Shown here: in pieces, positions 26,318 through 26,786 of the stretch | Layout of the letters: every line of letters starts with the position of its first letter | Position numbering within the stretch: the stretch's first letter is position 1 | UHGV virus genome: UHGV-0243142 | Length of the DNA stretch: 26,786 nt | Reading direction: 5' to 3' (one strand) | Source: a virus | The notes under the pieces: generated by a model | Database searches by the model: none | Told to the model about the DNA's origin: nothing | The model's input: the letters and a program-made list of their open reading frames with translations, nothing else | Made by a program: the position numbers and the translations under genes

Positions 26318-26366
26318 CGAAAATGAAAATCCGCCACAGCGTAATCAAAACGTAACTGTGGCGGAT
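26318..26366. terminator. Hairpin between convergent Tfa and dinI-like genes, probable terminator for the - strand gene
   Basis: Perfect 11 bp inverted repeat ATCCGCCACAG (26329-26339) / CTGTGGCGGAT (26356-26366) with a 16 nt loop. On the - strand it is followed by the U-rich tract AUUUUCAUUUUCG. Confidence 0.4.
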
Positions 26367-26377
26367 ATTGAAAAACT

Positions 26378-26620
26378 TTACTCACTCACTAACCAGAATT
26401 CAGCCTCTTCAAACATTTCCTGCACCGTTCGGCTTATCTGTTCTTTCTCATGCTTGCTGGCGTCAGTGTTGATCGCCGGCAGTGTCATCATCGGTTTTAC
26501 CCGAACATCAGCATCGGGGAAGATCCGGTGAACCCTACTGGTCAATTCGCCCAGAATGATATCTTTTGCACCGGGCAGACCATCAAAATTCCTTTTGTCA
26601 TAAACGAGTTCCACGAACAT
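26378..26620 (-). CDS. dinI: DinI-family SOS protein (prophage DinI-like)
   Basis: 80 aa. MFVELVYDKRNFDGLPGAKDIILGELTSRVHRIFPDADVRVKPMM...KEQISRTVQEMFEEAEFWLVSE parallels E. coli DinI (MRIEVTIAKT...ELSRRIQYAFPD...QETWESADDWFVSE, from memory). GGAG lies 9 nt upstream of the ATG on the - strand. Confidence 0.8.
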   Translation of the reverse strand: MFVELVYDKRNFDGLPGAKDIILGELTSRVHRIFPDADVRVKPMMTLPAINTDASKHEKEQISRTVQEMFEEAEFWLVSE

Positions 26621-26635
26621 TGAACATTGCTCCTT

Positions 26636-26655
26636 TACTGGATGTATATACAGTA
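26636..26655. promoter_or_regulatory. LexA operator (SOS box) for the dinI-like gene
   Basis: TACTGGATGTATATACAGTA matches the LexA consensus TACTGTATATATATACAGTA at 18 of 20 positions, with the CTG and CAG arms intact. It lies between the predicted -10 and the RBS of the dinI-like gene. Confidence 0.6.
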
Positions 26656-26684
26656 TTTATACTGTGTTTTTATCCGGTGTTCAA
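26656..26684 (-). promoter_or_regulatory. Sigma70-type promoter of the dinI-like gene
   Basis: Read on the - strand: TTGAAC (-35, + coordinates 26679-26684), a 17 nt spacer, then TATAAA (-10, + coordinates 26656-26661), immediately upstream of the LexA box. Confidence 0.5.
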
Positions 26685-26694
26685 GAGGGGTTAA

Positions 26695-26786
26695 ATGATG
26701 CCACGACGTAGCGATATTGAAATAGCCTGGTATGCTTCGATACAGCAAGAACCGAATGGCCGGAAGACTGTCACCACACAGCGATT
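26695..26786 (+). CDS. Hypothetical protein, 3'-truncated by the window edge
   Basis: An ORF opens at ATG 26695 (MMPRRSDIEIAWYASIQQEPNGRKTVTTQR...) with AGAGGGG about 4 nt upstream and runs off the window. It is divergent from the dinI-like gene. No family recognised. Confidence 0.3.
   Translation, partial: MMPRRSDIEIAWYASIQQEPNGRKTVTTQR

Follow-up and report, generated by a model that had tools for sequence, protein, structure and literature searches.

Our analysis concerns the right-hand end of UHGV virus genome UHGV-0243142, a stretch of 26,786 nucleotides referred to here as the window, which belongs to a temperate phage of the Citrobacter freundii type whose late region is lambdoid and whose contractile tail is P2-like. 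Judged from its sequence, this end appears to be a divergent SOS accessory cassette, in which a dinI-like gene on the minus strand and a plus-strand reading frame (orf80) are transcribed away from each other across common LexA operators (Table 1). On one side the cassette would be flanked by the tail-fibre genes, and on the other by the phage end that carries the attachment site. The convergence of the dinI-like gene with the tail genes, which had been proposed in an earlier note on this DNA, is borne out: a tail-fibre assembly gene with a match to Caudo_TAP occupies 25706-26308 on the plus strand, and it meets the dinI-like gene on a hairpin. The RNA fold of this hairpin reaches -21.1 kcal/mol on the minus strand (z -4.13) and starts 12 nt past the dinI stop codon; in the plus-strand direction AUAUUGAAAAAC, which makes a poor U-tract, comes after this stem, and the equivalent place in phiKO2 is annotated as a 'putative bidirectional' terminator. 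Rfam and tRNA scans of the window gave no matches. DNA related to the locus is carried by about 59% of complete E. coli genomes.

Table 1. Features of the divergent cassette at the end of the window, in order of position.
Feature	Position	Strand	Remarks
Hairpin terminator of dinI	26329-26366	-	followed by UUUCAUUUU at 26318-26328, on the - strand only
dinI-like gene	26378-26620	-	80 aa, ATG start; DinI family, MsgA/phiKO2 gp22 type
Shine-Dalgarno of dinI, AGGAG	26630-26634	-	9 nt before the ATG at 26620; conserved in alignments of relatives and phiKO2/phi80
Promoter-like site for the + operon, TTTACT-18-TATACT	26634-26663	+	spacer is LexA box 1; -10 overlaps box 2
LexA box 1, TACTGGATGTATATACAGTA	26636-26655		CTG-N10-CAG, 2 mismatches to TACTGTATATATATACAGTA; predicted site
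-10 hexamer of dinI promoter, TATAAA	26656-26661	-	read from sequence
LexA box 2, degenerate, TACTGTGTTTTTATCCGGTG	26660-26679		CTG-N10-CGG; fills dinI promoter spacer; predicted
-35 hexamer of dinI promoter, TTGAAC	26679-26684	-	read from sequence; 17-nt spacer to -10
Shine-Dalgarno of orf80, GAGGGG	26685-26690	+	4 nt before the ATG at 26695; read from sequence
orf80, first 30 codons (phrog_3893)	26695-26786	+	ATG at 26695; cut by the window end

A shared control region with predicted LexA operators

The two genes are separated by an intergenic control region of 74 bp (26621-26694), at the edge of which the start codon of orf80 is found. The divergent frame does share the control region of the dinI-like gene. 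This region appears to contain two overlapping, opposite sigma-70 promoters, the cores of which hold one strong and one weakened LexA operator. The TTGAAC-17-TATAAA promoter and the near-consensus LexA box directly following it, both of which the earlier note had picked out, are indeed present. Box 1 adjoins the -10 hexamer of the minus-strand promoter and fills the spacer of the plus-strand promoter. It is the sole site in the 26.8 kb of the window within three mismatches of the LexA consensus, while 100 shuffles produced 0 matches. The approximate heterology index of this box is 0.5-3.4, which falls in the range of recA, sulA and umuDC and is indicative only. The box aligns with the phiKO2 box TACTGTATATGCATACAGTA, and across homologues it is positioned 14-15 nt before dinI-type ATGs. 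Among the dinI loci homologous to this one, which come from about 60 species of Enterobacteriaceae, 73 of 80 have a LexA box upstream, against 10 of 2764 control windows (0.4%).

In many dinI homologues the ATG is preceded at 36-40 nt by a second box, and in the relatives L066 and L072-L074 the site corresponding to box 2 is a full box, TACTGTTTTTTTATCCAGTA. Because box 2 has CGG in place of CAG in the window, cooperative two-site repression may have been lost at this locus.

The promoter hexamers of both strands overlap the LexA boxes, and a comparison of 53 distinct homologous control regions shows them to be conserved. Those of the minus strand are nearly invariant: TTTATA is present in 51 of the 53, as well as in phiKO2 and phi80, and the -35 is TTGAAT or TTGAAC in the relatives and TTGACA in these two phages, where the pair aligns as TTGACA/TATAAA. 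This minus-strand dinI promoter went uncalled in the promoter scan, the rule of which demands a T at position 6 that TATAAA does not have; the sole promoter-like site that the scan returned in 26200-26786 was TTTACT-18-TATACT on the plus strand, both hexamers of which are conserved. Operator and conservation together place the locus among putative members of the LexA regulon, and its inducibility would follow by analogy with phiKO2 and the Gifsy phages.

The DinI-like protein, orf80 and humD

The minus-strand gene encodes a protein of the DinI family, as had been proposed. The Pfam DinI model (PF06183) gives 65.5 bits against a cut-off of 24.2 (5.6e-18), with residues 17-77 aligned to profile positions 3-63 of 63, and the E. 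coli DinI structure (1GHH/7YWA) is matched at an E value of 8.2e-07 over residues 15-80. In this alignment the acidic C-terminal helix is represented by the C-terminal HEKEQISRTVQEMFEEAEFWLVSE of the protein, which pairs with EDKQRISEILQETWESADDWFVSE of the structure sequence. Against the NCBIfam equivalog model of chromosomal E. coli DinI (PRK10597) the protein scores 37.6 bits, where the cut-off is 111; on this sequence evidence it is a member of a paralogous prophage/MsgA-type subfamily rather than a DinI orthologue. Since the score lies so far under the cut-off, binding of the protein to RecA filaments is assumed from family membership only. An identical protein is on record in Citrobacter freundii, and Gp22 of phiKO2 is 78% identical. 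In the phrog_189 profile of 151 positions the protein aligns to positions 71-150, which represent the DinI half alone. The gene is truncated in Chris1, the closest sequenced phage.

The 30 residues of orf80 within the window are identical to those of the copy in the relative L011, which has an identical control region and in which the full-length product is 80 aa. The family comprises 174 clusters, and residues 2-79 of the copy in L001 match the phrog_3893 profile at 3.6e-36 over positions 1-78 of 79. The reading frame has a pN/pS of 0.25, against 1.3-2.2 for four of the other five frames; its mirror antisense frame gives 0.39 and carries a stop. By these sequence measures orf80 is a genuine gene. 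The antisense 'partial DinI' pseudogene that RefSeq places over it was rejected, as purifying selection and a stop-free reading coincide only in the plus-strand frame. The names that databases attach to orf80, 'DNA polymerase V' (NCBI) and 'tail fiber assembly protein', are both misnomers: Pfam and NCBIfam profile searches found no polymerase domain in it, and the second name, used in some phages for the final 96 bases of the window, derives from chimeric reading frames in which the first 37 residues of orf80 are linked with fragments of Caudo_TAP. Matches to WD40 proteins in a profile search against PDB sequences were likewise discarded as spurious, being summed repeats of one 15-residue match.

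The orf80 product is small, roughly neutral and rich in tryptophan, and a winged-helix fold is predicted for it (AF2 pLDDT 89.5). Foldseek comparison of this model with the PDB and BFVD returned only family members or insignificant winged helices. The wing includes a predicted beta-strand in which a TFQLF/TFPLF likeness to the UmuD arm falls.

The earlier note had allowed that the plus-strand frame may also be under SOS control. The case for this is now stronger than could be seen from the window, because the homologues of orf80 keep a predicted LexA box, including those in lineages without dinI. Such a box lies 8-42 nt upstream in 84 of 91 loci with a homologue, also in the absence of dinI, and is retained in lineages that lack dinI and have unrelated flanks, among them phiES15, Erwinia Midgardsormr38 and a Klebsiella type with TACTGTATATAAAAACAGTA. 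The frame itself is present in L011 and missing from L004, L006 and L009, the prophage ends of which (tail and dinI DNA) are about 98% identical; this pattern of presence and absence marks orf80 as a probable accessory gene.

In the closest relatives orf80 is directly followed by humD, which encodes a UmuD' homologue and would lie beyond the end of the window. Its presence downstream of this copy of orf80 is predicted from the relatives, including L011 with its identical control region. This order is seen in L001, L005, L007, L008, L010, L011 and most IMG/VR loci, and with rare exceptions orf80 is coupled to a UmuD'-like gene. The L001 copy of the downstream protein scores 225.7 bits with the NCBIfam HumD equivalog model (cut-off 120) over positions 1-129 of 129. 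HumD of L011, at 41% identity, has as its first residue the one that aligns with UmuD Gly25 and is therefore a pre-truncated UmuD', without the N-terminal arm of UmuD; BLAST pairs a serine and a lysine of the protein with Ser60 and Lys97 of UmuD. The end of orf80 coincides exactly with the start of UmuD', and the two genes are translationally coupled, the invariant C-terminal Asn-Gly-Gly codons of orf80 serving as the humD ribosome-binding site. The invariance of this tail is, at least in part, due to the embedded Shine-Dalgarno sequence. Single proteins in the libraries have orf80 fused to UmuD'-like domains, or have the UmuC N-terminus after orf80. A SRAP gene that neighbours the cassette in L011 has no LexA box upstream.

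In all probability orf80 is an accessory protein on the HumD/Pol V side of the cassette. The coupling and the fusions would also fit a more novel reading, to which we give well below even odds: orf80 may be an SOS-induced protein of winged-helix type, not characterised before, that acts as a partner of the UmuD'-type proteins of phages, and as such it could regulate or target a phage-modified Pol V. Alternatively, orf80 could be the detached N-terminal half of a LexA/UmuD-like protein, composed of a winged helix and an S24 domain and split at the cleavage site. With hhalign, this origin received probabilities of 0.4% against LexA and 0.1% against UmuD, and it was set aside as a low-probability lead.

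Proposed role of the cassette

On the whole, we consider it quite probable that the window ends in a compact SOS accessory ('moron') cassette, bidirectional and repressed by LexA, of which it contains the left half and which would modulate the SOS and translesion response of the lysogen. The identities of the genes, the quality of the operator, its conservation and the architecture are the demonstrated part of this reading. In the uninduced lysogen, LexA dimers on the boxes would block RNA polymerase at both promoters; upon DNA damage, RecA* would drive the self-cleavage of LexA and both transcripts would start. The leftward transcript would be a monocistronic dinI-like mRNA that ends at the hairpin, and the rightward one would carry orf80 followed by humD. 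From what is known of the two families, the DinI-like protein would bind RecA filaments via its acidic C-terminal helix and HumD would provide a ready-made UmuD' partner for the UmuC of the host. On account of these activities, the cassette would modulate the SOS and translesion response of the lysogen rather than act as an induction switch.

A role in induction itself has two forms. According to the earlier note, a DinI homologue under SOS control could reduce the coprotease activity of RecA and so tune prophage induction; we take this to mean its timing or level during the SOS response. Membership of the DinI family and the predicted LexA control agree with this, and E. coli DinI reportedly binds RecA filaments and, in excess, inhibits their coprotease reactions. 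We nevertheless hold induction tuning to be unlikely: the gene lies in a dispensable, mosaic accessory region and is truncated in Chris1, the immunity region of the phage is outside the window, and non-polar dinI deletions in Gifsy-1 and Gifsy-3 did not significantly change the level of induction or its rate (Lemire et al. 2011, PMC3121763; reported there as data not shown). Alternatively the cassette might be the switch, with orf80 as an antirepressor like Tum, GfoA or AntC that inactivates a non-cleavable phage repressor. Small LexA-controlled proteins encoded beside dinI homologues are antirepressors in the Gifsy phages and phage 186, and a LexA-boxed product of 80 aa with the composition of orf80 would suit binding to protein over binding to DNA. 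This too is improbable, and more so than induction tuning, as orf80 matches no antirepressor family in Pfam, PHROGs or NCBIfam, is dispensed with in L004, L006 and L009 despite their close identity to L011, and has as its usual partner a UmuD'-like gene instead; moreover, in the Gifsy phages dinI and the downstream antirepressor gene share one operon, where the window has a terminator.

The DinI-like gene has also to be considered as a virulence or fitness gene of the MsgA type, acting mainly in the survival of stress by the host cell within animals, apart from phage biology and RecA. Homologues in Chris1 and mEp237 and dinL of phi80 are annotated as 'virulence protein MsgA', the protein does not qualify as an equivalog of chromosomal DinI, and msgA of Salmonella has a LexA box and is induced 3.4-fold by damage (PMC8072944). 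The name is an annotation transfer with no mechanism attached, and we give this role little credence; being compatible with LexA control and RecA binding, it amounts to a label more than to a competing mechanism. It is scarcely credible that an AT-rich spacer yields the LexA box and the promoter by chance and that the genes lie outside SOS regulation. The failure of the consensus scan on the minus-strand promoter and the defect of box 2 are in keeping with chance, to which are opposed the empty shuffles, the enrichment at homologous dinI loci over the control windows, the retention of the box where flanks are unrelated and the LexA regulation reported for the homologous phiKO2 and Gifsy loci (PMC7556043; PMC3121763).

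On its sequence, the putatively LexA-repressed accessory cassette is best described as an ordinary, previously described kind of DNA-damage-inducible cassette in a Citrobacter prophage. Under antibiotics, lysogens with such cassettes may deal differently with DNA damage and mutagenesis, an expectation that is already accepted. The sole point that would advance knowledge is the role of the small winged-helix frame orf80, tightly associated with a LexA box and coupled to humD.

Comparison with known systems

The HumD protein of phage P1, reportedly described by McLenigan et al. in 1999, is a known counterpart of the gene that follows orf80 in the relatives, which conforms to the HumD equivalog model; humD of the cassette would differ from it in being preceded by a winged-helix frame and paired with a divergent dinI. 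In the plasmid operon impCAB, ImpC is a DinI homologue and lies upstream of the UmuD homologue ImpA. The impCAB operon and the chromosomal umuDC operon, both SOS mutagenesis operons, likewise have DinI-like and UmuD-like genes co-regulated from one LexA operator, whereas the cassette is without the umuC/impB polymerase gene and its genes are divergent, not in series. Tum of phage 186 is a LexA-controlled antirepressor with a DinI-like C-terminal half; the protein in the window shares LexA control, here predicted, and the DinI-like domain, and consists of this domain alone, the antirepressor half being absent. Neither an antirepressor domain on the DinI-like protein nor an antirepressor gene downstream of it was found, the terminator and the convergent gene coming next, and the locus is to this extent distinct from Tum- and Gifsy-type antirepressor modules.

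LexA-controlled dinI genes of prophages are already known from the Gifsy phages, phi80 and OS31. In the dinI-antirepressor-irsA operons of Gifsy-1, -2 and -3, the dinI homologue stands right behind the LexA box, which is 15-19 nt from the ATG (PMC3121763). These homologues are LexA-controlled, induced 4.6- to 23-fold by damage and placed outside the immunity region (PMC3121763, PMC8072944), and msgA of Salmonella has a LexA box of its own. The Gifsy dinI is the first gene of an operon with the antirepressor, while the dinI-like gene in the window appears to be monocistronic and bounded by a terminator, with its predicted co-regulated genes (orf80-humD) divergent.

The closest counterpart is the pair of genes 22 (DinI-like) and 23 (UmuD-like) of the Klebsiella phage phiKO2 (GenBank AY374448), which has the same divergent arrangement with an annotated intergenic lexA site and terminator. 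The control regions are homologous, with the same -35, -10 (TATAAA), LexA box and AAGGAG, and in both phages a terminator separates the dinI-like gene from a convergent tail-fibre gene. Regulation of the phiKO2 gene by LexA is stated in PMC7556043, which cites Casjens 2004. The two differ in that phiKO2 is a siphovirus maintained as a linear plasmid, whereas the window comes from an integrated prophage with a P2-like tail, and in that phiKO2 has no orf80, its UmuD-like gene following directly after the control region as in L003, L004, L006 and L009. With a UmuD'-like gene seen in the relatives L011 and L004, the locus appears to belong to the phiKO2 gp22/gp23 type of divergent DinI/UmuD' cassette, and we regard it as one more case of a widespread and annotated class, the LexA-controlled DinI/UmuD' accessory cassettes that temperate phages of enterobacteria carry at their tail-fibre end.

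The dinI-like gene and its surroundings

A minus-strand ORF in the final 470 bases of the window encodes a clear member of the DinI family, as the earlier note had proposed. It matches Pfam PF06183 at 65.5 bits (threshold 24.2), the PHROG 'RecA filament binding protein DinI' at 1.2e-19 and the E. coli DinI structure (1GHH/7YWA) at E 8e-7, in an alignment that spans the acidic C-terminal helix. Its score of 37.6 bits with the NCBIfam equivalog for chromosomal dinI falls below the cut-off of 111, and the gene is thus not an orthologue of chromosomal dinI; its subfamily is the prophage type, entered in databases as 'DinI-like' or as 'virulence protein MsgA', and the exact protein is already recorded in Citrobacter freundii. 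A 7-nt tandem duplication at the start of the gene (CAATGTT CAATGTT, 26614-26627, minus strand) gives rise to an extra ATG, out of frame, at 26627, 7 nt ahead of the true start; most relatives have CAATGAG CAATGTT here. The closest sequenced phage is Citrobacter phage Chris1, with head genes 92% identical. Elsewhere the window consists of a lambdoid late region (Ant-like gene, Q, DNA methyltransferase, lysis genes and terminase) with a tail module that is P2-like by the Pfam families of the same genes in relatives; the immunity region is absent from the window.

The predicted convergence with the tail genes is borne out by the Caudo_TAP gene. A stable hairpin lies between them, and only in the minus-strand reading does a U-tract come after it; dinI is therefore monocistronic, converging on the tail-fibre assembly gene. 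The adjacent tail-fibre ORF (23914-25704) contains three tandem modules of ~50 aa (…APKVILRxGDVNLxSGxNNLVIQVGGNDxAxLTPENFYHVKQVAAAESL…), and versions of 519, 569 and 619 aa in relatives suggest that the number of repeats varies.

Features of the dinI-orf80 region (window positions)
Feature	Position	Strand	Remark
Tail-fibre assembly gene	25706-26308	+	Caudo_TAP; convergent with dinI
Hairpin	26329-26366	-	downstream of dinI; -21 kcal/mol, z -4.1
dinI-like ORF	26378-26620	-	80 aa
Predicted promoter TTTACT-18-TATACT	26634-26663	+	promoter scan
LexA box 1, TACTGTATATACATCCAGTA	26655..26636	- (as read)	directly after -10; then AGGAG, ATG at 26620
-10 TATAAA of dinI promoter	26661..26656	-	read from sequence
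Box 2, TACTGTGTTTTTATCCGGTG	26660-26679		in spacer of minus-strand promoter; overlaps -10 and start region of plus-strand promoter
-35 TTGAAC of dinI promoter	26684..26679	-	read from sequence; 17-nt spacer follows
orf80	from ATG 26695	+	behind GAGGGG; 30 codons within window

LexA operators overlapping both promoters

The dinI promoter and the near-consensus LexA box directly behind it are present exactly as first described, and the promoter scan did not call this promoter because its TATAAA lacks the terminal T. Box 1 has 2 mismatches to the 20-mer LexA consensus and is the sole site in the window with three or fewer, a level reached by no site in 100 dinucleotide-preserving shuffles. It ranks with the strongest operators by an approximate heterology index, which is only indicative. 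The -10 elements of the two promoters overlap; box 1 forms the spacer of the plus-strand promoter and also covers the start region of the minus-strand one. Box 2 is defective in the window, with CGG where CAG is required, and intact as TACTGTTTTTTTATCCAGTA in several relatives (control regions of loci L066 and L072-L074). The ancestor of this control region is likely to have carried a tandem pair of LexA boxes, 24 bp apart.

We sampled 80 loci encoding DinI-like proteins of 69-98% identity, from about 60 species of Enterobacteriaceae. A LexA box (CTG-N10-CAG, up to 5 mismatches, no more than 110 nt upstream) precedes the dinI homologue in 73 of them, typically 14-15 nt from the ATG, 36-40 nt from it, or at both distances, and occurs in only 10 of 2764 control windows from the same loci. 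Across 53 distinct, near-identical control regions conservation falls on the two boxes, the two -10 elements and the -35 elements, with variable sequence beside the start codons; alignment with the phiKO2 and phi80 control regions shows the -35, TATAAA, box and Shine-Dalgarno sequence kept and the flanks diverged. A further LexA-like box (TACTGTAAAAATAAACAGTG, 3327-3346, 4 mismatches) sits past the Q antiterminator gene, 8 nt into the ORF of the DNA methyltransferase (ATG 3319). SfV and mEp460 share it without change, which is uninformative since the whole stretch is 98% identical there.

orf80 and the humD gene that follows it in relatives

The divergent ORF, orf80, is cut off by the window end; in L011, a Citrobacter-type genome with an identical control region, it encodes 80 aa. 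It matches phrog_3893. A pN/pS analysis of 67 distinct nucleotide versions gives 0.25 in the orf80 frame (0.38 for the part in the window) and 1.3-2.2 in four of the five others, the mirror antisense frame giving 0.39 and containing a stop; by sequence comparison, orf80 is a real gene. The family is small (174 clusters among 1.84 billion representatives) and found only in temperate phages of Enterobacterales (HK225, HK140, mEp390, phiES15, Erwinia and Klebsiella phages). AlphaFold predicts a confident winged-helix topology (pLDDT 89.5), and sequence comparison with UmuD and with the N-terminal domain of LexA detected no relation.

A LexA box (at most 5 mismatches) lies 8-42 nt upstream of orf80 in 84/91 loci. 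Lineages without dinI and with unrelated flanks also keep it, as in phiES15 (TACTGTATCTATATACAGTA), Erwinia phage Midgardsormr38 (TACTGTATATCCAAACAGTA) and Klebsiella-type prophages (TACTGTATATAAAAACAGTA), and the suggestion that the plus-strand ORF is also SOS-regulated is well supported by these comparisons. orf80 is optional: in four loci (L003, L004, L006, L009), three of which (L004, L006, L009) have prophage ends ~98% identical to the window, humD stands directly behind the same control region.

In L011 a 129-aa gene starts five bases after orf80. The L001 copy scores 225.7 bits with the NCBIfam HumD equivalog (cut-off 120), and the product is 41% identical to E. coli UmuD from Gly25 onward, so that it corresponds to a ready-cleaved UmuD'. 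The dinI-free orf80 lineages likewise continue with a UmuD'-like gene, starting (M/V)GFPSP. In L001 the humD ATG lies 2 nt past the orf80 stop, and at this junction (6520-6545) the codons for the invariant Asn-Gly-Gly at the C-terminus of orf80 (AAC GGA GGA) double as the humD Shine-Dalgarno sequence, a dual constraint that may explain the invariance of this tail. Some relatives have an extra SRAP/YedK-like gene adjoining humD, which further supports the view of this stretch as a DNA-damage accessory island beside the attachment site. In L011 this 'SOS response-associated peptidase' gene (4623-5291) is convergent with humD and has no LexA box upstream; a tRNA-like 3' fragment beyond it (~4310-4355) marks the attachment site.

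Database records treat orf80 inconsistently, naming it 'DNA polymerase V', 'tail fiber assembly protein' or 'hypothetical' according to source. Two RefSeq/PGAP calls are annotation artefacts: a 'partial DinI' pseudogene placed antisense to orf80 (L001 6317-6394) and a 'frameshifted S24 peptidase' joining its second half to humD (L001 6425-6930), with L002 likewise. Among library proteins (P0153, P0195, P0247, P0251, P0167), single predicted products join an orf80-like N-terminus with a UmuD'-like domain beginning MGFPSP...; in P0167 a UmuC N-terminus directly follows the orf80 tail (MFASVDVNSFYASCE). Such fusions may be genuine or may stem from assembly and frameshift errors. In E. coli phages 2G7b, ev243, PhiR29_1 and others the first 37 codons are fused to Caudo_TAP fragments (phrog_2341; hits H2-H15, window 26686-26781), apparently a scar of recombination where the tail-fibre module meets the accessory region.

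Proposed working and known counterparts

With its gene identities, its strong and conserved operators and their overlap with both promoters directly observed, the feature is very probably a LexA-repressed bidirectional cassette of DinI and orf80-HumD. In the lysogen, LexA on the boxes would shut both promoters; DNA damage would lead to LexA cleavage and simultaneous expression of the DinI-like protein and orf80-HumD. DinI binds and stabilises RecA filaments and interferes preferentially with UmuD processing, and HumD is reportedly a functional UmuD' that needs no processing. Their pairing would let the prophage shape the host translesion response.

The earlier note's observations hold, and its interpretation is supported only in part. 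Its proposal that the DinI homologue tunes prophage induction appears unlikely, since deletions of dinI in the Gifsy prophages had no significant effect (PMC3121763) and the window excludes the immunity region. A Tum- or Gifsy-type antirepressor module is ruled out, the protein being a DinI domain alone with nothing after dinI in the transcript.

The proposed LexA-repressed DinI/UmuD' cassette is of a kind already well known. In phiKO2 (GenBank AY374448) gp22 (DinI-like, 78% identical to the protein here) and gp23 (UmuD-like) show the same divergent architecture; the record marks promoters and a lexA binding site, with a terminator on the side of the tail-fibre gene. The annotated site (1449-1469) lies ~19 nt off a near-perfect box (TACTGTATATGCATACAGTA, 1468-1487), and the -35 and -10 coordinates miss the obvious hexamers. 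The phiKO2 gene is LexA-regulated according to PMC7556043 (citing Casjens et al. 2004), which also describes an equivalent gene in Serratia phage OS31, opposite the tail genes and with a LexA box 14 bp upstream. A LexA site is predicted for phi80 dinL, LexA control of the Gifsy dinI homologues has been shown experimentally, and DinI is annotated beside the orf80 homologue in HK225 and related phages. Set against these systems, the remaining novelty is orf80, a putatively LexA-controlled, humD-coupled gene for a predicted winged-helix protein, carried under conflicting database names.
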